Source: an uncultured Veillonellaceae bacterium (GTDB taxonomy: Bacteria; Bacillota; Negativicutes; Selenomonadales; Selenomonadaceae). From it: DNA of 64,000 nucleotides. Positions 611 to 45,540 of the stretch are shown piece after piece. Under the pieces are notes generated by a model, which saw nothing but the letters and a program-made list of their open reading frames with translations, made no database searches and was not told the origin of the DNA. Both the position numbers and the translations under genes were made by a program. How positions within the stretch are numbered: the first letter of the stretch is position 1; the number at the start of each line of letters is the position of its first letter. The DNA is taken from NCBI GenBank assembly GCA_902785705.1, contig CACZZN010000011.1, forward strand, positions 605 through 64,604. The letters are read 5' to 3'.

Positions 611-2379
611 TTTCTAAACCGCCTATGCGGCGGATAACTGTGTCCCCTTCTTTTGGTATCACGACCTGCATTTCTAAACCGCCTATGCGGCGGATAACAT
701 CCTCCTATTGGCTGGGCTGCCTCAGACTTATTTCTAAACCGCCTATGCGGCGGATAACCAATCAAATCAATGCGGCGAATATGCCGTACTTTTCTAAACC
801 ACCTATGCGGCGGATAACGGCAGCATATTTATTGGCGTTCGCCTGTGCTTTTTCTAAACCGCCTATGCGGCGGATAACCTGGGCGTATGCACGATATGCG
901 GAAAAGCCATTTTCTAAACCGCCTATGCGGCGGATAACATCGCGCCTTACGCCGTTTCGGTCAACGATGTTTTCTAAACCGCCTATGCGGCGGATAACAA
1001 GCATCGCTTTCCCATCGGCGATGGCAGACTTTTCTAAACCGCCTATGCGGCGGATAACAGGGGTAGGAGATTGCCGGGTAATTCCAAGGTTTTCTAAACC
1101 GCCTATGCGGCGGATAACATTGGCCTGCTTGAGGCCGTCGATCTCCAGCTTTTCTAAACCGCCTATGCGGCGGATAACCGTATCTTCACGGGCAGCCAAT
1201 CCGCCTGACATTTCTAAACCGCCTATGCGGCGGATAACCAGCTGTCCCATTGACCTTCGCATAGGTCTTATTTCTAAACCGCCTATGCGGCGGATAACTT
1301 GCGCCGCTGCTCCTGATTGCTCTCCCATGCTTTTCTAAACCGCCTATGCGGCGGATAACACCATTACTATCTCTGGGCTATGGAAGTAACATTTCTAAAC
1401 CGCCTATGCGGCGGATAACGGCTGATGCCGATGTCGTTCGGTCCTGCATATTTTCTAAACCGCCTATGCGGCGGATAACTTTTTCAGGCGCACGTTGCGG
1501 CTGCCGCCGTATTTCTAAACCGCCTATGCGGCGGATAACAACCATAGGATAGAGAATGGACAACACCGTATTTTCTAAACCGCCTATGCGGCGGATAACT
1601 CCGTCCTTTTTCTTTTCTCCCCTGCACGGCATTTCTAAACCGCCTATGCGGCGGATAACAAAGAGATGCTCGTTCTCACGGAATGCCCGAATTTCTAAAC
1701 CGCCTATGCGGCGGATAACGGATGCAATCAGCCTTTCCTGCCTTCGCGGTATTTCTAAACCGCCTATGCGGCGGATAACCTTCGGCAGGGCGGGAACGGA
1801 AGCAAGGAAATTTTCTAAACCGCCTATGCGGCGGATAACTTATGATTGCAGACGGAAACGGCGGCGCATATTTTCTAAACCGCCTATGCGGCGGATAACC
1901 TGTGTCTTTATCTGCTCATTGATACCGCCAATTTCTAAACCGCCTATGCGGCGGATAACGAGATGCTGCCGGGGACACGAGCGGCGGCTATTTTCTAAAC
2001 CGCCTATGCGGCGGATAACTACTTCGACAACGGTACGGTATGGCACACCACTTTCTAAACCGCCTATGCGGCGGATAACCTTCGCAGGCGTGAGATAACC
2101 GCCATGTTTGCTTTCTAAACCGCCTATGCGGCGGATAACCGTCATTTTACGCTTCTCCCTTATTTTACGAATTTCTAAACCGCCTATGCGGCGGATAACA
2201 GGCGGCGGCTCCTGCACCTGCGACGAAGGGATTTCTAAACCGCCTATGCGGCGGATAACCAGCCGCAGGATTCACGCGCATGATAGAAGTTTTTCTAAAC
2301 CGCCTATGCGGCGGATAACATTTGAAAGGAGTAATGACAAATGTCTCTTATTTTCTAAACCGCCTATGCGGCGGATAAC
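611..2379 (-). CRISPR. Type I-F CRISPR array, 30 repeats / 29 spacers
   Basis: 28-nt repeat TTTCTAAACCGCCTATGCGGCGGATAAC on the + strand, which is GTTATCCGCCGCATAGGCGGTTTAGAAA on the - strand. This fits the I-F consensus: CCGCC/GGCGG stem and TTAGAAA 3' handle. Repeat starts are 611, 671 ... 1271, then 1332 ... 2352. Spacers are 32 nt except one of 33 nt (1299-1331). One variant repeat at 791-818. Confidence 0.97.
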
Positions 2380-2508: not shown

Positions 2509-3144
2509 TCAAAATTCTGGTACCGTGGAGATATCGCTTAAGCCGTAGGATCCGAAAGCGTTCTCTATATTTTTCTCTCGGAAGTCCTTTTTTATAAATA
2601 AGCGAAATGGATTTTTGTTGGTTAAGCTTTTCAACTGGATGTAAGGAACATTTTTATCAAATTCTCGCGCGGGAAACAGGGCAAGCGCTTCTTCATAGGA
2701 TATGTTGTGGCGCTTGGCATATCTTCTGGCCTTTTGTTCCGCACTACTCTTTTGATGAAATCGTCTGTAATTGGCATATCCCTTGAGTACGGAGGGGATT
2801 GGGCGGATCGATGTGATATGGACGTAATCCGCCAGTCGAGCGAGACGATCCCTGACAGCAAATTCTTGTAGTGAGGATTCTTCCATTGCGAATAAGCGAA
2901 GTCGATAACCAAATGCACAGGTGGGCAAGCCTTTGGACTTCTCTGCTGACAACGGTTTACGGCAATTGTTTTTTCCGGCGGAGAGTTCTTGATAGTCGGG
3001 AAAAGAAATCCCGATAGGGACATGTCCATGTTCGTCCTGATGGGATGCAAAGCCAAGATGAAGTTGCTGGTATACCTTCGACCAGATGAAATAAGCCGGT
3101 ACTTCTGCGCAGGGGAGGATGGTCAGTTCCTGATAGTATTTCAT
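2509..3144 (-). CDS. cas6f: Cas6f (Csy4) crRNA endoribonuclease
   Basis: 211 aa from ATG 3144, with an AAGGAGT SD just upstream. The 265-aa ORF-track version overlaps cas7f and is too long. MKYYQELTILP...IGISFPDY...FRLFIKK...GSYGLS..VPEF is collinear with remembered Csy4 features. Confidence 0.85.
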   Translation of the reverse strand: MKYYQELTILPCAEVPAYFIWSKVYQQLHLGFASHQDEHGHVPIGISFPDYQELSAGKNNCRKPLSAEKSKGLPTCAFGYRLRLFAMEESSLQEFAVRDRLARLADYVHITSIRPIPSVLKGYANYRRFHQKSSAEQKARRYAKRHNISYEEALALFPAREFDKNVPYIQLKSLTNKNPFRLFIKKDFREKNIENAFGSYGLSDISTVPEF

Positions 3145-3148
3145 AACA

Positions 3149-4180
3149 TTACTCCTTGCTGCTCTGGCCGAAAACGCCGCCGCGAACCAGAACCGCCATG
3201 ACATAATGTTCCTCATTCTCGTTTGCAAGAGATTCTCCCAATGCATAGCGGTCAAACAGGGAATAAAAATCCACTTTGTCTTTTGGATTGCGGAACGCTT
3301 TGCCAAGGTTAGTCACAGCTCCGTAGGGTTCAATGGCAATTGGGCCGATGCCGCTGGCTGTCTCGTACTCTGGGTACCAGGTATCAATAGTGCGGATGGC
3401 ATTGTTCAATTTCTGGGAGTGCATGGCGGCAATTTCATTGACTTGATACAGCACCTTGCTCTTGTCCCCACGCCCTTTGTCGAAGACCAGTTCCTCACTG
3501 GGATAGACCTCCTGCCCTTCACCCAATAAGGCATAGGTTTCGATATCTAATAACAGATAACGTTTTCGTCCACTAAGGGCGGATGCGATTCGACTGGCCA
3601 GTTCTTCTGTTTTTTCATTTTTTTCAAAGTCTTTCAAGGAAAATTCATAAGCATTAAAAACCCATGATTTTTTTTCCTGTTCATTGCTGACATCTGTGAT
3701 TCTGACCTCAATTTTTTCCGCACCCAGTCGATTTCGCCATAGATATCTGGCATTGGCAAGGTTTATCGCATAGCGCCGCCCCAATTCGTGGAACTGTGTT
3801 CTTTCTATATATCGTTTAGCGATTTCCGTATACTTCTGGCTGAATCCGGCATGATTGCAAGCAGAAGGAGTTTCGACACCACTCAATACTTTGAGGGAGA
3901 ATTTCAGTTTCAGGGTGTTGTGGTTCATGGATAGGGCACAAGCGTCAACAAGTTGTAGATTCGGTTTTTCAACTTCGGCATTCAATTTGGCGGGATCGTT
4001 TTTTACCGTATCTTTCAGGCGATTGGAAATCGTGCCACGTACAGACTTTTCCACTAATTTCAGTGGTTCTGCCGGTTCATCTCTGTTCTCCCATGTAGTT
4101 CCATACATATAGCCGTCGGATGCAACTAATTTTTTTTCGAATGCCAATACAGATGCTATGCCAGTTTCTTTCTTTGCCAT
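3149..4180 (-). CDS. cas7f: Cas7f (Csy3) Cascade backbone subunit
   Basis: 343 aa. SVLAFEKKL, EKSVRGTISNRLK, NLANARYLWRNRLGAE, HSQKLNNAIRTIDTWYP, GPIAIEPYGAVT and VRGGVFG blocks are near-collinear with P. aeruginosa Csy3 as remembered. Confidence 0.9.
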   Translation of the reverse strand: MAKKETGIASVLAFEKKLVASDGYMYGTTWENRDEPAEPLKLVEKSVRGTISNRLKDTVKNDPAKLNAEVEKPNLQLVDACALSMNHNTLKLKFSLKVLSGVETPSACNHAGFSQKYTEIAKRYIERTQFHELGRRYAINLANARYLWRNRLGAEKIEVRITDVSNEQEKKSWVFNAYEFSLKDFEKNEKTEELASRIASALSGRKRYLLLDIETYALLGEGQEVYPSEELVFDKGRGDKSKVLYQVNEIAAMHSQKLNNAIRTIDTWYPEYETASGIGPIAIEPYGAVTNLGKAFRNPKDKVDFYSLFDRYALGESLANENEEHYVMAVLVRGGVFGQSSKE

Positions 4181-4192
4181 AATAAAACCTCC

Positions 4193-5104
4193 TCAATGCT
4201 GTTTGGTATTCCATTGATTGCTGTTTTTGCACAGATAGAGTCCAAGTTGGGGAATTGTCTGATAGTTCCACATGATCTCTTCCAAGTCACGGAAGTGGAA
4301 GGGCATTTTAAATTCGCATATCGTGACCACGGATTCCGCAAAATGATGTTCGTAGTCGTAGGAGCGTTGGTGTCGTACCCGCATCGGCCCTGAGATGTCT
4401 TTGAACCCCACGGCCAGCGGAATGAGCCAACCCGGTTGCTGTTTCTGCGGACTCCATTGGGGGATAGCATCTGCCCCTGTGTGTTCTTTCGGGGTAAATC
4501 TGACGGAAAGTACGTCCAACAACTGATCCAAGGTATCTTTTCCCTCCGGCAAAGGCTCTTTCAGAAGGTCGCTGCGGTCAATAATGACGTATCCGGGCAT
4601 CAGACGGCGGACTGCATGGGCAATAGTCTGCGGTTCGTCTTCGTCTACGTACAATATCTGTAAGGTACTTATTTTTTCAATGTCGCCACCGGCAACTTTT
4701 AATTGGGGAAGAATTTCCCGGACCGCACCTAAAAACATATTATCGTTTTCTACGGCAAGATTGTTGAGTTCTATGAGCAGGGAAACGACCAGATGGCAGC
4801 GGGGTTCTTCAATAAAAGGGGGGCGTTCAAATTCTTTTCCCTTTTTTTTCAGAGGATTTGAGGTTCCGATGATCGAATACCTATAGTCATACACCCCTTT
4901 GTACACTTGAACATTGCAGTCATGACAAGAGACTGCAACCTTGCAGAGGTCGATTTCGGGGAAACCGTCGGCCTGGAGTTTTCGCTGCAAGGCGTGAACA
5001 AAGCCAAGCCAGGCCGTCATAGCAGGAAATCCGATGATATAGGAACCGGACAGGGCGTTGGCATTATGAACATGAAGTTTTGGTATCAGCAAGAAAGGCC
5101 TCAT
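4193..5104 (-). CDS. cas5f: Cas5f (Csy2)
   Basis: 303 aa. The N-terminus LLIPKLHVHNANALS...GFPAMTAWLGFVHALQRKL resembles Csy2. ATGA start/stop overlap with cas8f. Confidence 0.85.
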   Translation of the reverse strand: MRPFLLIPKLHVHNANALSGSYIIGFPAMTAWLGFVHALQRKLQADGFPEIDLCKVAVSCHDCNVQVYKGVYDYRYSIIGTSNPLKKKGKEFERPPFIEEPRCHLVVSLLIELNNLAVENDNMFLGAVREILPQLKVAGGDIEKISTLQILYVDEDEPQTIAHAVRRLMPGYVIIDRSDLLKEPLPEGKDTLDQLLDVLSVRFTPKEHTGADAIPQWSPQKQQPGWLIPLAVGFKDISGPMRVRHQRSYDYEHHFAESVVTICEFKMPFHFRDLEEIMWNYQTIPQLGLYLCKNSNQWNTKQH

Positions 5105-6267
5105 AATTGCACCTCCTTGGTGTCCAGCAGGATATCGTGGATTCTGTGGCGTAGGGCATTGAATTCCGCGTCGCCCAGGTCAAAGGCATCCTTTTTCAGG
5201 AGTTCCTGATAGGTGTGAAGCATCCATTCGGCAAACTCTCTTGAAATTTCTTTGCTCCATGTGTCATCGGATTGGCGCTCTTCCTCATAGAGACTGTCCA
5301 GCCAGATTTTTTGATGACGGGATATGCGGCAGGTTTCCGCATCGGACCATCCACTTTCCAAACTTCGGAGCCGAAATACGCGCATAAGGATCCGGTCGAT
5401 GATGGCATCCTCGGCATCTCTTGTATCCCGGCGGATGTCCTTGTTATTCCGCTGTACGCCATAAAGATAATGCAGGTTATAGAACAGGGAGGAATAGCGT
5501 TTGGTTCGCAGCGATTGGAAGAAATTCCGTTTGGGCGGAAGGATTTCCCGCCGGGGAAGGTGCGGAGGAAAGGCGGGGATTAGGTAGGCTCTGCCGCCAT
5601 TCATGTTATTGAGTGTAGATATATTCTGCGGCTTGGTCCCACCAAAACTGCTCTCACTCAGATCAAAAACCTTCCTGTAGGTCGTGAGATATTGATCGCT
5701 TTTTTTATCCTGGGATGCCCTTGCTTGCGCTTCCATGTTACGAAGCCGCTTCCTCAGCTCCAACATCAGGGAAGAAGCGGGAAGAACGGAGAGAAGATGG
5801 TATTGATTCTCTCCGATGGGGAAAAAGACTTGCCGGATTCGCTCATCCGTCGCATCCGGAATATAATCTTCCTTTACATTCAAAATATTATTACGAACCA
5901 CTGTATAGTCGATTTGCAACGAAGAGAGATCCTGACGAAGTTTTTCCGTATTTTCCTTGAAGTGGGAAAGAACCGTTTTTTTATCTTCCAGCTCCAGCAA
6001 AAGGAATCGGGAGATAGCGAGAAACGCAGCCGATGATACGGTGATATCTTTGGTGCAGGCAACCGCATCCGTGGTGATATATCCGTCGAGGGTGTCGTTC
6101 TTTACGCTATGGGATATCTTTACGTCTGCGGACGGATGGGAAAAGCGGCCAACATAGAAAGACGTCGTGCATTTTGAAGCATTCAGGGATGTTGCCATGA
6201 GCCATTCTTCTACATTTTTTCCTTTTTTGGCCGCCTCTTCGGTCATATAGGACATTATGATATTCAA
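5101..6267 (-). CDS. cas8f: Cas8f (Csy1) large subunit
   Basis: About 390-aa ORF in the canonical slot between cas2-3 and cas5f. No diagnostic motif recognised. Start chosen as TTG 6267, 7 nt after GGAGG (6279-6275). Alternatives: ATG 6256 or the ORF-track start 6291. Confidence 0.75.
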   Translation of the reverse strand: MNIIMSYMTEEAAKKGKNVEEWLMATSLNASKCTTSFYVGRFSHPSADVKISHSVKNDTLDGYITTDAVACTKDITVSSAAFLAISRFLLLELEDKKTVLSHFKENTEKLRQDLSSLQIDYTVVRNNILNVKEDYIPDATDERIRQVFFPIGENQYHLLSVLPASSLMLELRKRLRNMEAQARASQDKKSDQYLTTYRKVFDLSESSFGGTKPQNISTLNNMNGGRAYLIPAFPPHLPRREILPPKRNFFQSLRTKRYSSLFYNLHYLYGVQRNNKDIRRDTRDAEDAIIDRILMRVFRLRSLESGWSDAETCRISRHQKIWLDSLYEEERQSDDTWSKEISREFAEWMLHTYQELLKKDAFDLGDAEFNALRHRIHDILLDTKEVQL

Positions 6268-6301: not shown

Positions 6302-6485
6302 ACCTGAATCCGTGAAACTGGATGGATGTATGATGTACTTGCTATGTCCGCCCCCTTGGGGGCGGGGAACCATCGAAGATGGTGGTGGGGGTGACGATTT
6401 TGACACATTGCCCCCCACCACCGCCGATGGCGATCCCCCGCCCCCAAAGGGGGACGGACAGTGTTCGAGTTTCACGGATTCAGGT
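6302..6485. repeat. ~185-bp imperfect palindrome rich in G and C runs (predicted cas8f leader hairpin)
   Basis: Perfect 17-bp terminal arms: ACCTGAATCCGTGAAAC (6302-6318) and GTTTCACGGATTCAGGT (6469-6485). Inner arms: GTCCGCCCCCTTGGGGGCGGGGA vs TCCCCCGCCCCCAAAGGGGGACGGAC, and GGTGGTGGGGG (6381-6391) vs CCCCCCACCACC (6411-6422). Confidence 0.85.
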
Positions 6486-6492
6486 TGTATAT

Positions 6493-6521
6493 AAGATACC
6501 ACGATAGCAGAAAATAGTCAA
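6493..6521 (-). promoter_or_regulatory. Putative sigma70 promoter TTGACT-N14-TGG-TATCTT (extended -10) pointing into the palindrome and cas8f
   Basis: - strand TTGACT at 6521-6516, TGG at 6501-6499, TATCTT at 6498-6493. The predicted transcription start (~6486) coincides with the 5' base of the palindrome. Confidence 0.45.
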
Positions 6522-6523
6522 TA

Positions 6524-6544
6524 ATAATTTTTTTAATATCAAGG
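6524..6544 (-). promoter_or_regulatory. Predicted self-target of the mini-CRISPR guide (protospacer 6542->6524 plus CC PAM 6544-6543)
   Basis: - strand CC|TTGATATTAAAAAAATTAT is 17/19 identical to the psi-spacer. Mismatches are only at positions 12 and 18. The site lies 2 bp from the -35 TTGACT. Confidence 0.5.
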
Positions 6545-6546
6545 AT

Positions 6547-6621
6547 ATAATATGCCGCCTGTCCGGCGGCTAAAAAAATTTCTTTAATATCAATTTCTAA
6601 GCCGCCTGTTCGGCGGAGGTA
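6547..6621 (-). CRISPR. Degenerate single-spacer mini-CRISPR (psiR1 - 19-nt psi-spacer - psiR2), CreA/CreR-like
   Basis: psiR1 (6621->6594) TACCTCCGCCGAACAGGCGGCTTAGAAA is 21/28 identical to the array repeat. psiR2 (6574->6547) TTTAGCCGCCGGACAGGCGGCATATTAT is 19/28 identical. Both keep the CCGCC/GGCGG stem. The spacer is TTGATATTAAAGAAATTTT. Confidence 0.65.
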
Positions 6622-6627
6622 TTCTGC

Positions 6628-6656
6628 TTGCGACAAAAGAATTTTTGATGTATACT
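6628..6656 (+). promoter_or_regulatory. Putative promoter TTGCGA-17-TATACT for the + strand small RNA
   Basis: TTGCGA 6628-6633, 17-nt spacer, TATACT 6651-6656. Confidence 0.45.
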
Positions 6657-6662
6657 GATAGC

Positions 6663-6759
6663 AAAGAGGGGTGCCGCCTAGCGGTTTCGCCCTCAGATGG
6701 GATATCCTTAGATTACCCGCCTTCTAAGCTAGCAACTAGGAAAGGCGGGTTACTTTTTT
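6663..6759 (+). ncRNA. Candidate ~95-nt small RNA convergent with, and overlapping the 3' end of, the peptide gene
   Basis: Bounded by the promoter above and an intrinsic terminator: ACCCGCCTT (6715-6723) / AAGGCGGGT (6742-6750) followed by TACTTTTTT. Has an internal GAGGG...CCCUC hairpin. No plausible SD plus start codon. Confidence 0.4.
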
Positions 6760-6815
6760 ATCGTCATGAGGATCAACAAAATCAACAGCAAAGCCATGAT
6801 CAGGTTATCATCCAT
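6750..6815 (-). CDS. 21-aa hydrophobic peptide MDDNLIMALLLILLILMTIKK (type I toxin-like)
   Basis: ATG 6815 lies 7 nt after the strong SD AAAGGAGGG. Stop TAA 6752-6750. Single predicted TM helix with a KK tail. The SD can pair in a GCCCUC/GAGGGC hairpin (6843-6822). Too short for the ORF track. Confidence 0.45.
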   Translation of the reverse strand: MDDNLIMALLLILLILMTIKK

Positions 6816-6869: not shown

Positions 6870-6899
6870 ATTATAACGTGTTTATTTACATATTGACAA
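6870..6899 (-). promoter_or_regulatory. Putative promoter TTGTCA-18-TATAAT for the peptide gene; -35 lies inside the last codons of cas2-3
   Basis: - strand TTGTCA 6899-6894, TATAAT 6875-6870. The cas2-3 stop is at 6888-6886. Confidence 0.5.
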
Positions 6900-9800
6900 G
6901 AGAAGAATCTGTGAAATTGTGTTTTTGCTTATTCGGGTCATTCTTTTTCCATAAGCCTAACTGATCAGAATAAAGCAGGGTATATCGCGAACCCGCGCCA
7001 TAATACGGTATTGTAATCCTGCCGAATTTTTCGCTGAGAGATTCCATTCTTGCCTCTTCTGCTTCGGGAGGGCAGTCGGGATGCAGAGCCTGTTCCCGAA
7101 GGGACGCTATATAGTCCCGCTCCAGCCAAAGTCGTTTCTTTGCAGTAGTATCTATCATATCCGTAGCAAATTCAATATGGTAGCTATCTTCCTTAGCGAT
7201 ATACTCTCCCGTCCTTGCCCGTTCATAGAATTTGGGTTTTCGATTTCTATAGCAGAGGCATAGCGGGATTTGCGGAGTTCCATCCCGGAATGGATGGAGC
7301 ATCTGCGGGAGTCCCGTCATCCACCAATATTCCCTGAGATATCCGTGCAATGTGTCGGGGCCGACGGCAGATATATCACAGAAGTCCTGCATGACTTGAT
7401 GTTCCAAATGAATCAGGTGCTTTCCCGGTTCCAGAGGGAATGGCTTGCGGATTCTCGGAACGGCATCTACTTTCGTCAGCAGATCAGACGCGTTTACCAA
7501 GTCGTTCATATCGTGGCTATCCAACGGATACCGTTCGGATGTTTCATAGCCGGGATGACAAAAAGCCGGACTTTTGCCATCCAGTCCTTTGAGATTGTAT
7601 TGCAGGATGGCAATATTGGGAGTGGAGATATCTTCCTTGAGGTTCCGATGGCGGAGAACCCTTCCCGCCAGCTGGATGATGGAGCGGTAGGAGGATGGCT
7701 CCACCACAGCCCAGTCAAAATCATGATCCCGGCCGATTTCTTCCACGGGTGTCGAGATGACAAGAAAAAGAAGATTTTCCTCAGAGACGCTATTGATATG
7801 TGAACGGAGAACAGGATCGTCCGAAAGGATGGAAGAGGCGGCTCCTTTGCGTTTTAATACCCGGTCCAGGTAAGTTTCCTGCTCATGGCGCAGCAGCAGC
7901 GTCTGACGACTGTGATAGGTCATCAGACGTACGGCATAGCCTGCCCAATCCGCATGCAGGAGAAACAGGCTCAGGTATACGCAGGGATCGATGTTTGCCA
8001 TGCGGATCAGACCAAAGGATATTTTCTTCCCGGATACGGTGTCGATGAAACAGTGGGCGTTATGCAGGGAAATGGCGGTTTTCTGTATTTGTGCGAAATA
8101 CAGAAGCCTCTGCTGCGATTCCTCCACATTTTCTTCTTTAAGGATCGGTACAAGACATGCTTTTCGCTTGACCATTTGCCGGTCAAGTTTCATGATTCGC
8201 TTATCTACGAACTCCCGGTGAAGTTTTTTGTATTCTTGTCCGAAAGTTTCTGAGTTTCCCGAAATCGGACAAACTGCCGTTCTGAATTCATCGCACCAAG
8301 CACAGAGGATTTGCGCATGCTGTTGAGTGAATCCGTTGTAGAGAACACGACCTTCCCAATAGGCGCAAAACAGTCCTTCTGCCAGGTCAGGCGGGATGGT
8401 AGCAGACGAAATTGCTACATTTCTTCCCAACATACCGGCTAAATGGACAAGATGGGCGATGGGAATCAGGTCGTTTGCATTGAAATCGTCCACTTCGTCG
8501 ATTACAAGGTCGGATGACATCAACCGCAGGAAAGGCAGCATGTATTTGCCTCCCCGAGTGCTTTCCGTCGCGCGGATGAGATGGTCAATGGTTGCAACGA
8601 GTACCGGTTTATAGAGAAAGGCCCGATTTTTCTTTGTGAAGCCGGGCTTGTTGTTGTCAAAGAAAATGTCGAGAAAGCTGTCCGAACTATCCAGTGCATA
8701 GTGAATGCCACTATCCAGCAAATCCTCCTGCCCTTCTTCCCCAAAAACGGAATCCTCCTGTGTCTGTTGGTACAGTTCTTGTACCGCGGAATCGCCAATC
8801 AGGACGGCCAGTTCGTCCTCGTCCAGGCCGATGCGCTGACGATATTCGGTTCCTGTCTGCAGAGTCAGGGAACGTAACCCCAAGGCAAGGACGTAGCGAA
8901 GGGATTTTCCGTCTTTTGATACAGCTTGCATGATTTTGGCATTAGCGATGGTTTTCCCGCAACCCGTACTTGCCATGTTCACGATGAACCAGCCATTTTC
9001 CGCGTCCGTGTCCTGTGCCTCACGGAAATAGCGGATGGTCTCCACTGCGGTATCCTGCCAAAGGAAGGGTTTGGGACTTTTCTTCCTCAAAGAACGGATG
9101 TCTCTGGCGAACTCCATCCGTTCGGCCAGTTGAGGCAGACGATGCGCGATTTTCAAAGCCTGTGCCGTCACACGTACCAGATGTTCATCCAGTTTCTGCC
9201 CGCCACCGGATTTGGCGTACAGATCGCAGTCCGTTTTCCAATTCGGGTCGGCAGGATTGGAAGAGGAAGAGACGTAATAATCCGCCATCATCATGCTCAG
9301 ACGCGCGTAATGCAGAACAGGACGCAGGGACGGAGTATCAAGAAGCCGCAGGATGTGTTCCCGTTCCTCCGATAGCCTTTGTGCCCACTTCTTCACCTGC
9401 TTGCTCCAAGGGTCGGATTTCTTCAGGAGCCCACGGGCGAATTTGACCGGGACGGAGGTGTCCTTCTGATATCCCCAATTGCTTTCTATGACTGACAGTA
9501 CGGAGGAAAGGGAGTTCTTTGCGTTCCCCTTGTACTTCGTGGCAATCTCCTTGTCTAAGACAGGCATACGGTGGTGGGTGAGGATGAGCCAGCAGATGAG
9601 ACTTGCAATAGGAGGGAAATGGGAGAAGGGTTCATCCATCACATCGGGAAGTTTCTTCAGGATCTGCTTCTCATCGAAGGATTGATTTTGCAAACTTTCC
9701 ATCCATATCCTGTCATCCTCTCCGGATTCCGTGGCTGCAATCAGAGCAGAAATCAATTTGCAGGAGATCCATTCGTGTCGGAAAGGGTCCTTCCCTTTGG

Positions 9801-10218
9801 ACGGTGCTGTCAGCATTTTCTGAAAGGCATGATTCGCTTTCCCCCAGTCATGCAGCAAAGAAGCCATGGCCGTCAATGCCTTGATGGCTGGTAGATATAC
9901 CCAGTGGTTTTCCCACTCGCCATGACGAATGTTTTTCTTTGTGGAGTGGACGGGTACGGTTCCCTGCTCGTTGAACTTGTCCCGATTTCCCACGATCCAC
10001 AAAAGTTCGCTCCGATTCCTGGAGCGAATCCAGTGGCAAGCGACCGCCGTATTTTTTGTGGCGGATTTTCGTAAGAGCATTTTCACGGTTTGCAGACCAT
10101 CTTCCGTAATGATGGTTTTCCATGTATCGTTACCGATGCGATCGGCGAAGGTATCCAGAATTTTTCTGGTAGACTGGAGAGATTTCTTTTCGCTGCGGCT
10201 CGTAAACAGGACCATCAT
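6886..10218 (-). CDS. cas3: Cas2-Cas3 fusion (type I-F Cas2/3 nuclease-helicase)
   Basis: 1110 aa. N-terminal ~95-aa Cas2-like module, HD region (LLHDWGKANHAFQ), Walker A (NMASTGCGKT) and a DEVDD helicase box. ATGA overlap with cas1. Confidence 0.9.
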   Translation of the reverse strand: MMVLFTSRSEKKSLQSTRKILDTFADRIGNDTWKTIITEDGLQTVKMLLRKSATKNTAVACHWIRSRNRSELLWIVGNRDKFNEQGTVPVHSTKKNIRHGEWENHWVYLPAIKALTAMASLLHDWGKANHAFQKMLTAPSKGKDPFRHEWISCKLISALIAATESGEDDRIWMESLQNQSFDEKQILKKLPDVMDEPFSHFPPIASLICWLILTHHRMPVLDKEIATKYKGNAKNSLSSVLSVIESNWGYQKDTSVPVKFARGLLKKSDPWSKQVKKWAQRLSEEREHILRLLDTPSLRPVLHYARLSMMMADYYVSSSSNPADPNWKTDCDLYAKSGGGQKLDEHLVRVTAQALKIAHRLPQLAERMEFARDIRSLRKKSPKPFLWQDTAVETIRYFREAQDTDAENGWFIVNMASTGCGKTIANAKIMQAVSKDGKSLRYVLALGLRSLTLQTGTEYRQRIGLDEDELAVLIGDSAVQELYQQTQEDSVFGEEGQEDLLDSGIHYALDSSDSFLDIFFDNNKPGFTKKNRAFLYKPVLVATIDHLIRATESTRGGKYMLPFLRLMSSDLVIDEVDDFNANDLIPIAHLVHLAGMLGRNVAISSATIPPDLAEGLFCAYWEGRVLYNGFTQQHAQILCAWCDEFRTAVCPISGNSETFGQEYKKLHREFVDKRIMKLDRQMVKRKACLVPILKEENVEESQQRLLYFAQIQKTAISLHNAHCFIDTVSGKKISFGLIRMANIDPCVYLSLFLLHADWAGYAVRLMTYHSRQTLLLRHEQETYLDRVLKRKGAASSILSDDPVLRSHINSVSEENLLFLVISTPVEEIGRDHDFDWAVVEPSSYRSIIQLAGRVLRHRNLKEDISTPNIAILQYNLKGLDGKSPAFCHPGYETSERYPLDSHDMNDLVNASDLLTKVDAVPRIRKPFPLEPGKHLIHLEHQVMQDFCDISAVGPDTLHGYLREYWWMTGLPQMLHPFRDGTPQIPLCLCYRNRKPKFYERARTGEYIAKEDSYHIEFATDMIDTTAKKRLWLERDYIASLREQALHPDCPPEAEEARMESLSEKFGRITIPYYGAGSRYTLLYSDQLGLWKKNDPNKQKHNFTDSSLVNM

Positions 10219-25068: not shown

Positions 25069-25143
25069 TGGAGCGGAAAACGAGGCTCGAACTCGCGACC
25101 CCCACCTTGGCAAGGTGGTGCTCTACCACTGAGCTATTTCCGC
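25069..25143 (-). tRNA. tRNA-Gly (GCC), copy 1
   Basis: 75 nt. Anticodon loop TTGCCAA, AGTTCGAGCCT T-loop, CCA. Confidence 0.93.
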
Positions 25144-25147
25144 GACA

Positions 25148-25222
25148 TGGAGCGGAAAACGAGGCTCGAACTCGCGACCCCCACCTTGGCAAGGTGGTGC
25201 TCTACCACTGAGCTATTTCCGC
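25148..25222 (-). tRNA. tRNA-Gly (GCC), copy 2 (identical tandem copy)
   Basis: Sequence identical to copy 1, 79 nt upstream of it. Confidence 0.93.
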
Positions 25223-45401: not shown

Positions 45402-45540
45402 CAGGACATGCCTGACAAACGCCATAGGGTATATTTTGCCTATGGCAAAATTTGAACAATTGCGTTATGTCAGGACAAGCCTGACGAAACGCCATAGGGT
45501 ATATTTTGCCTATGGCAAAATTTGAACAATTGCGTTATAA
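45402..45540 (+). repeat. Tandem 69/70-bp duplication carrying palindromic operator-like sites and the glgB promoter
   Basis: Unit CAGGACA[T/A]GCCTGAC(G)AAACGCCATAGGGTATATTTTGCCTATGGCAAAATTTGAACAATTGCGTTAT occurs twice (45402-45470 and 45471-45540). Only the second unit ends in TATAAT. Confidence 0.9.

Follow-up and report, generated by a model that had tools for sequence, protein, structure and literature searches.

A predicted CreR-type mini-CRISPR at the csy promoter of a type I-F1 CRISPR-Cas locus from a Selenomonadaceae bacterium

An excess of long gaps between cas3 and cas8 (28%) has been reported for type I-F1 CRISPR-Cas loci, with mini-arrays in 15% (Shmakov et al. 2023, PMC10120712). 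These mini-arrays have targets at cas8 promoters with a CC protospacer adjacent motif (PAM), shortened spacers, and mismatches at sixth positions, including positions 6 and 12 (PMC10120712). In Pseudomonas aeruginosa YL84 the I-F1 mini-array repressed the Cascade promoter; Cascade and the RNA were needed for this, Cas3 was not (PMC10120712). Toxin-less elements of this kind have been named CreR, and I-F cases were recognised by eye (Figure S7 in Liu et al. 2023, 10.1101/2023.03.10.532045). Furthermore, for I-F psi-spacers of 20 and 26 nt the mature RNAs were as long as expected and repression exceeded 90% (10.64898/2026.06.02.729485). I-F CreA/CreT and CreA/CreP modules have since been described from this gap, as have viral mimics (10.1101/2024.01.05.574328; 10.64898/2026.06.02.729485; 10.1101/2024.10.29.618823). 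The typical psi-spacer is 23–27 nt in bacteria and 17–21 nt in viruses, and that of P. aeruginosa CreA1 is 20 nt (10.1101/2024.10.29.618823). Here we analysed a 64,000-nt stretch (the window) of contig CACZZN010000011.1, from an uncultured bacterium of the Selenomonadaceae. It encodes a complete type I-F1 locus, in which the 618-bp gap between cas2-3 and cas8f holds a mini-CRISPR with a single 19-nt spacer. We read this element, with a probability of about 0.85, as a CreR-type autorepressor that would guide the Csy complex of its own locus to the promoter of the csy operon. The mechanism of I-F mini-arrays is already known; the element is a new example in a new host lineage.

The locus lies on the minus strand within the first 11 kb of the window, and Pfam matches give the gene order cas1, cas2-3, csy1 (cas8f), csy2, csy3 and csy4 (cas6f) (Table 1). 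Its canonical array consists of 30 copies of the repeat GTTATCCGCCGCATAGGCGGTTTAGAAA with a 60-nt period. Two repeat-like units, psiR1 and psiR2, surround the psi-spacer in the gap, as in CreR elements. In psiR1 the hairpin CCGCC-GAACA-GGCGG and the 8-nt end that encodes the 5' handle (CTTAGAAA, 6601-6594) are intact, whereas psiR2 has an intact 5' part and hairpin (CCGCC-GGACA-GGCGG) and a decayed, strongly haplotype-variable handle part. Thus the upstream unit keeps the handle end and both units keep the Cas6f hairpin. The first-pass annotation of this DNA, made from the letters alone, had described this pattern as a reciprocal decay of the two repeats. Rfam matches are consistent with that, since psiR1 is recognised as an I-F-type repeat, CRISPR-DR4, over model positions 6-28 (E = 6e-4) and psiR2 gives a weak score against the same model over positions 6-24. 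All coordinates and identities that the annotation had given for psiR1, psi-spacer and psiR2 were reproduced to the base. In view of the published range and the 20-nt spacer of CreA1, the 19-nt guide lies at the short end of what is known and inside it. A promoter and terminator scan flagged the psiR2 hairpin with its T-rich tail as terminator-like. When the mini-array is folded to its minimum free energy, psiR1 and psiR2 pair with each other, because the two are near-identical palindromes; this fold is therefore uninformative on Cas6f substrates.

The annotation had further claimed a CC PAM and, after it, a site that matches the psi-spacer at 17/19 positions, differs from it at 12 and 18, and lies 2 bp from a TTGACT; this was confirmed (Table 1). 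The TTGACT is the -35 element of a predicted csy-operon promoter, TTGACT-17-TATCTT, that was called independently by the promoter scan and has a TG extension (6501-6500) in its 17-nt spacer. A search for the 21-nt pattern of CC plus spacer with up to 3 mismatches found it within the 64 kb solely at the spacer and at the target, and there were 0 occurrences in 100 shuffles of the sequence. The match of spacer and target is therefore non-random. The target is also the sole site in the window where a 10/10 seed match stands beside CC. The complementarity, partial and proximal to the seed, to a PAM-flanked site at a predicted effector promoter is again what has been described for CreR. On the plus strand, the TATAAT at 6546-6551, noted earlier on the PAM side of the target, does exist, but it has no -35 element and is not conserved in relatives. 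It is not kept in locus L012, and as a regulated antisense promoter it was rejected.

Related loci (numbered L001 and so on) were compared in order to follow spacer and target. Within the window clade the comparison covered twelve metagenomic loci, including nine with an identical Csy3 that cover all or part of the gap, plus L248 and L249. A scan of genome contigs with the single Cas8f protein found no relative, and an alignment-based scan succeeded; the closest named Cas8f relatives belong to Selenomonas, Anaerovibrio and Pectinatus. For the named-genome relatives, a scripted search of 80 loci looked for a hairpin plus handle and then for a spacer whose seed recurs after CC. Matches were demanded at positions 1-5 and 7-11, whereas any base was accepted at 6 and 12.

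The mini-array, PAM, target and promoter were found in all window-clade loci compared. The target varies at positions 12, 18, 19 and 20 only, and positions 1-11 and 13-17 are invariant; the target of L006 has a G at position 12, which matches the spacer. The most diverged stretch of the mini-array within the clade is the 3' (handle) part of psiR2, and the psiR2 stem is intact. The clade of L012, L013 and L014 and the clade of L015, with Cas8f proteins 53-54% and Cas2-3 proteins 61% identical, have the same layout and different spacers. The spacer of L012 (TTGGTTTTTTTATTTTG) matches 17/17 a site flanked by CC, with 4 nt between its end and TTGACC-17-TATAGT, and that of L015 (TTAGTTTTTTTATTTTT) mismatches its target at positions 6 and 17. 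Position 3 covaries: L012 has a G there in its spacer as well as its target, and L015 an A. Selenomonas ruminis (L018), S. ruminantium (L019 and L023), Anaerovibrio (L021) and a Pirellulaceae metagenome-assembled genome (MAG; L096) each have a matching spacer/target pair of their own. The architecture is thus kept in eight lineages with differing spacers, and the CC-flanked target has changed accordingly in each. In all eight the exact CTTAGAAA handle stands beside the seed, and CC beside target position 1, on the cas strand.

The position of the element is also conserved. In L001-L019 the mini-array lies in the cas2-3/cas8f gap, and in L018 and L019 it starts about 20 nt after the cas2-3 stop. 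In L023 it is likewise directly upstream of cas8f, where the upstream neighbour is not cas2-3. An equivalent and strong promoter follows the target in L012, L015, L018, L019 and L023, and in L021 the -35 element is within the target. In the seven lineages with the target beside cas8f, it ends at or overlaps the -35 element of a good promoter upstream of that gene.

The mismatches between spacer and target are not evenly spread. Within positions 1-18 they are found at 12 and 18 in the window and in L018, at 18 in L012, at 6 and 17 in L015, at 6, 12 and 18 in L019 and L021, at 6, 12, 16 and 18 in L023, and at 12 in L096. Over the eight lineages this amounts to 16/24 cells at the sixth positions, which is about the neutral expectation, against 2/120 at all other positions (Fisher p = 1.4e-13). 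Since matching at positions 1-5 and 7-11 was a condition of the search, the fair subset is positions 13-18, on which site finding did not depend; here the counts are 6/8 against 2/40 (p = 6e-5). A comparable seed match occurs at about 0.9% of random start positions in the regions searched, so the hits are far above background. Furthermore, in 15 units (psiR1, psiR2 and array repeats) every stem is fully (100%) paired, with 3 of the 5 pairs changed on both sides. Judged from these alignments, the mismatch pattern together with the paired stems is the signature of pairing by an I-F surveillance complex and not of a drifting duplication, and the coevolution of spacer and target with tolerance at the sixth positions agrees with CreR. 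In L249 (2020-2045) the target changes at positions 19 and 20 are uncompensated, which suggests that the selected pairing ends at position 17. Alignment of the homologous gaps had been proposed by the first-pass annotation as a check of its own reading, and the covariation it asked for was found across diverged loci. The outcome expected of a plain duplication, with hairpins missing and mismatches across the pairing positions, was not seen; the hairpins are kept and the mismatches are almost all at sixth positions.

Two of the lineages deviate in layout. In the Anaerovibrio MAG L021 (5300-5990) the regulatory spacer is the final unit of a full multi-spacer array located directly upstream of cas8f. 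This array ends in a degenerate repeat and is not a two-repeat mini-array, and the mismatches to its target are at exactly 6, 12 and 18. In the Pirellulaceae MAG L096 the spacer of a handle-bearing repeat-like unit matches a CC-flanked site 17/18, with the mismatch at 12. This target lies about 845 nt upstream of cas8f and on the other strand, and the regulated gene may therefore not be cas8f.

Following the described systems, the element could work as follows. In a transcript running in the cas direction, Cas6f would cut each of the two hairpins, psiR1 and psiR2, at its base and release an RNA predicted from the sequence to be 47 nt long (6601->6555), made up of the 8-nt handle CUUAGAAA, the 19-nt guide and 20 nt of psiR2 as 3' hairpin. 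The Csy proteins and Cas6f (2509..5104) would be the machinery that processes and carries this guide RNA, and the canonical array would be the source of competing CRISPR RNAs (crRNAs). On the guide RNA a shortened Csy complex would assemble, recognise the CC PAM and pair with target positions 1-5, 7-11 and 13-17, that is, in three Cas7f segments with each sixth base flipped out. The bound complex would lie against the -35 and upstream-promoter (UP) region of the cas8f-csy2-csy3-cas6f promoter and block RNA polymerase. The short R-loop should not license Cas2-3, which would not be recruited because the R-loop is incomplete, and the chromosome would stay uncut. This would give a negative feedback: when free Csy complex is scarce, through crRNA titration or anti-CRISPRs, the promoter would be released and more effector made. 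The covariation, the sixth-position mismatches, the compensated hairpins and the conserved promoter back the first-pass suggestion that a short-spacer Cas6f guide represses at the cas8f promoter. The annotation had not recognised the architecture. It has already been described and reporter-tested for I-F1 (PMC10120712), and is treated also in 10.1101/2023.03.10.532045 and 10.64898/2026.06.02.729485.

The closest described systems are the I-F1 cas3/cas8 mini-arrays (PMC10120712). The window locus shares with them the subtype, the position in the gap, two repeats around one spacer, a better-preserved repeat on the seed side, the short spacer, the CC PAM, a target at the csy promoter, sixth-position mismatches and a predicted repression free of cleavage. 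It differs in its host, a member of the Selenomonadaceae (Negativicutes) and not of Pseudomonas or Acinetobacter, and its spacer and repeat sequences are unrelated to theirs. Furthermore, the window mini-array is co-directional with the cas genes, unlike those described, and its target lies 2 bp from the -35 element, compared to about 30 bp in P. aeruginosa (10.64898/2026.06.02.729485). The P. aeruginosa mini-array has since been reinterpreted as the CreA of a CreTA module, whereas that of the window has no toxin behind its target. With CreR (10.1101/2023.03.10.532045) the locus has in common that the mini-CRISPR is degenerate and partly complementary to a site with a PAM beside an effector promoter, the absence of a toxin, and autorepression that would sense free effector. 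The CreR experiments were made on types I-B, I-E and V-A and not on I-F, and the window locus is known from its sequence. The I-F CreA RNAs (A. baylyi ADP1 CreP; P. aeruginosa CreT1 and CreT2) are found in the same gap and have the same anatomy, with the handle in psiR1 and both hairpins, and they are likewise characterised by a short psi-spacer (20-26 nt), a CC PAM and mismatches at sixth positions (6 and 12). In contrast, I-F CreA silences the promoter of a toxin, either a KilA-C protein or an RNA with Shine-Dalgarno sequence (SD), mini-ORF (open reading frame) and hairpin with proline codons, whereas the promoter predicted to be silenced in the window drives cas8f directly.

The locus and its relatives add well-supported natural examples of predicted Cas autoregulation through a degenerate guide in the Negativicutes (Selenomonadaceae and their relatives), outside the Proteobacteria in which I-F CreR and CreA have been studied. 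The eight independent spacer/target pairs define what an I-F regulatory guide seems to need, namely a CC PAM and about three 5-nt segments, with the sixth positions free. The locus also marks a csy promoter with a putative built-in repressor, for rumen microbiology or for the use of Selenomonadaceae I-F systems.

The similarity to CreA raises the question of whether the RNA is instead the antitoxin of a CreTA or CrePA addiction module, the toxin being either something within the leader of cas8f or the hydrophobic peptide of 21 aa encoded nearby. Such modules are known from the cas3/csy1 gaps of Acinetobacter and P. aeruginosa I-F loci, which carry creA with a toxin (10.1101/2024.01.05.574328; 10.64898/2026.06.02.729485), and in P. 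aeruginosa the CreTA1 toxin and the cas genes share one promoter (10.1101/2024.10.29.618823). In the window, 130 nt upstream of psiR1, there is a small ORF that resembles a toxin gene in having a strong promoter, an SD and a hairpin that would stabilise its mRNA, and this ORF and the mini-array are conserved together in two diverged clades. However, the small ORF is served by a separate promoter, some 330 bp upstream of the target, and in three clades no site beside CC that matches the seed at 7/10 or more was found near that promoter, so the guide does not appear to target the cassette. The Selenomonas relatives, moreover, have the mini-array and target without the small ORF. As for the leader, the interval between promoter and cas8f holds in the window nothing other than a palindromic insertion resembling a miniature inverted-repeat transposable element (MITE), which is missing from six near-identical loci. 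In the window-clade loci free of the MITE, about 45 nt separate the csy promoter from the start of cas8f, and neither an ORF nor a toxin of the SD/mini-ORF/hairpin type lies in between. No toxin was thus found to be transcribed from the guide-repressed promoter, which is what characterises CreTA and CrePA, and the guide is therefore expected to regulate the csy operon, as a CreR and not as a CreA. We consider the addiction module improbable. Toxin control, which the first-pass annotation had offered as an additional or alternative role, is not supported, for the same two reasons: the short leader leaves no room for a toxin, and the small-ORF promoter has no second target. Two scans of IMG/VR for viral mimics of the guide (Cracr) gave chance or coding matches only.

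It could also be argued that the mini-array is a non-functional relic, left from a decayed array or from a local duplication of AT-rich DNA upstream of the promoter. Both repeats are degenerate, spacer and target are AT-rich and of low complexity, and mini-arrays are sporadic and often lost (PMC10120712). Among the relatives, L098-L101 have no gap or no mini-array, and the close relatives L098-L100 are without any gap. Against decay stand the CC PAM, which is kept, and the target, which tracks the changing spacer across lineages at 41-54% Cas8f identity. Nor would a relic be expected to have nearly all its mismatches at 6, 12 and 18, compensated stems, and exactly the handle preserved in psiR1 and exactly the hairpin in psiR2, and this explanation is very unlikely. 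Even less likely, to the point of being hardly credible, is that the mini-array is read on the plus strand, with the complement of psiR2 (hairpin plus CTAAAAAA) as the handle-bearing repeat. A repeat-like unit with 2 mismatches is indeed present at 6555-6577 (+), as the stems of the repeats are palindromic, and transcription opposite to cas3 was inferred for the cases examined in PMC10120712. On that strand, though, the matching site has no preceding CC, and the handle-like CTAAAAAA is not conserved, being CTAATAAA in haplotype B and without anything similar in L012. It is the cas strand that has the exact handle and the CC at target position 1 in eight lineages.

Several points weigh against the reading of the mini-array as a csy autorepressor. 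It is based on the anatomy of the locus, comparative sequence and published homologous architectures, from which we infer both processing and repression. The csy promoter is predicted from a consensus match alone, with a modest score of 9/12, yet it has an extended -10 element and is conserved. The promoter scan revealed no evident dedicated promoter for the mini-array on the cas strand just upstream, and for this reason transcription of the gap is proposed to be probably read-through from cas2-3 or from the small-ORF promoter (6899-6870). The way in which sites were searched inflates the mismatch contrast at positions 1-5 and 7-11, and the unbiased subset is smaller. A compensatory change at position 20 (T/T against A/A in the two main window-clade haplotypes) was considered as well; it is weakened by L249 and not general, and the agreement is probably coincidental. 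Finally, the MITE hairpin may dominate or disturb expression of the csy operon in the window strain.

Table 1. Coordinates of the I-F1 locus, the mini-array and neighbouring features in the window
Feature	Coordinates	Strand	Remarks
cas1	11186-10215	-	Pfam
cas2-3	6886..10218	-	upstream neighbour of the gap
Small-ORF promoter TTGTCA-18-TATAAT	6899-6870	-	strong, 11/12
21-codon ORF MDDNLIMALLLILLILMTIKK	6750..6815	-	between cas2-3 stop and psiR1; SD AAAGGAGGG
Predicted antisense RNA, about 100 nt	6628..6765	+	promoter TTGCGA-17-TATACT 6628-6656; start about 6663
psiR1 TACCTCCGCCGAACAGGCGGCTTAGAAA	6621->6594	-	21/28 identity to array repeat
psi-spacer TTGATATTAAAGAAATTTT	6593->6575	-	19 nt; invariant across all 12 window-clade loci
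psiR2 TTTAGCCGCCGGACAGGCGGCATATTAT	6574->6547	-	19/28 identity to array repeat
PAM CC	6544-6543	-	I-F canonical; immediately 5' of target; CC at same place in all eight lineages
Target TTGATATTAAAAAAATTAT	6542->6524	-	17/19 to psi-spacer; mismatches at 12 and 18
Predicted csy-operon promoter	6521->6493	-	-35 TTGACT 6521-6516; 17-nt spacer; -10 TATCTT 6498-6493
MITE-like palindromic insertion, 184 bp	6302..6485	.	21-nt terminal inverted repeats; between csy promoter and cas8f SD
cas8f/csy1	5101..6267	-	first gene of putatively regulated operon; start taken as TTG 6267, downstream of SD AAGGAGGG
csy2	4193-5104	-	putatively regulated operon
csy3/cas7f	3149-4180	-	putatively regulated operon
cas6f/csy4	about 2509-3144	-	putatively regulated operon
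Canonical CRISPR array	611..2379	-	30 repeats, 28 nt each; 32-nt spacers

The MITE-like insertion in the cas8f leader folds, as RNA, with -119.9 kcal/mol (z = -11.9). It is missing from L001, L004, L006, L010, L248 and L249, where the empty site reads atatacaaatatgatt, and it is therefore an insertion in the leader and not a part of the module. Compared with the copies of L002 and L003, that of the window lacks 22 bp internally, and no further copies were found in the window or in the fetched loci. A role as a CreT-like RNA toxin was considered and rejected, as some loci with identical Csy3 have the element and others lack it, and as the copy in the window is internally deleted. The cas8f gene calls downstream give 388 aa in L001-L010.

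The small ORF upstream of psiR1 encodes a small hydrophobic peptide, appears to be under purifying selection and has its own promoter and SD, all of which are features of type I toxins. Compared to L012 and L015 it has 6 synonymous codon changes and 1 non-synonymous change, and the DNA of the cassette is 80-86% identical in the L012/L015 clade, though Cas2-3 is only 61% identical. The SD can pair with an upstream CCCTC, and the hairpin at 6750-6715 has a U-run on the opposite (+) strand only. A promoter for the predicted antisense RNA is kept in L012 as TTGCAA-17-TATAAT, so that a convergent promoter is conserved in two clades. Among the parts of the cassette only the antisense RNA folds better than shuffles (z = -2.5), and a variant of the SD region in L007 and L008 is uncompensated. 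We found the cassette in two clades only, always between cas2-3 and the mini-array, and the metagenomes of the JGI (Joint Genome Institute) gave the L012-type locus alone. The ORF was found neither on viral contigs nor elsewhere in the 101 fetched loci, nor a second time in the window, and the cassette has no family match in Pfam, NCBIfam or Rfam.

Predicted from its sequence, the cassette looks like a type I toxin-antitoxin (TA) pair carried as cargo. In Clostridioides difficile, type I TA loci have been found beside CRISPR arrays (Maikova et al. 2018, PMC5961336). The small hydrophobic peptide and the linkage to CRISPR-Cas are shared with these loci, and a convergent, overlapping antisense RNA like theirs is predicted here (PMC5961336). 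The toxins of C. difficile measure about 50 aa and are encoded beside I-B arrays, whereas the window ORF of 21 aa lies in the gap of an I-F cas operon, directly upstream of the putative CreR. It is conceivable, though unlikely, that the cassette and the CreR form one functional unit in which the Cas6f cut at psiR1 sets the 3' end of the toxin mRNA. On the sense strand, the small ORF of the window clade is not followed by a U-tract terminator, and its mRNA would therefore read into the mini-array. If true, the stability of the toxin mRNA would be tied to a working Cas6f/Csy, giving a CreTA-like safeguard that acts by RNA processing and not by promoter repression. Such a coupling of a type I toxin to Cas6f has not been described so far. 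Both the cassette and the MITE, which is polymorphic in the leader, are new observations of minor weight.

The C terminus of Cas2-3, next to the cassette, is haplotype-dependent: the protein has 1110 aa in L002, L003 and the window, against 1093 aa in L001 and L004. This difference (window 6886-6940, L001 7380-7430) is due to a frameshift just 5' of the stop, and in the window the cas2-3 ORF extends across the -35 element of the small-ORF promoter.

Elsewhere in the window, two identical, adjacent tRNA-Gly(GCC) genes (25069-25222) are part of a cluster of five tRNA genes. A 70-bp sequence is present twice in tandem (45402-45538) immediately upstream of a GH13 (glucan-branching-like) gene. A GH13 protein of housekeeping type encoded in the window is 87% identical to a protein of Selenomonas ruminantium.

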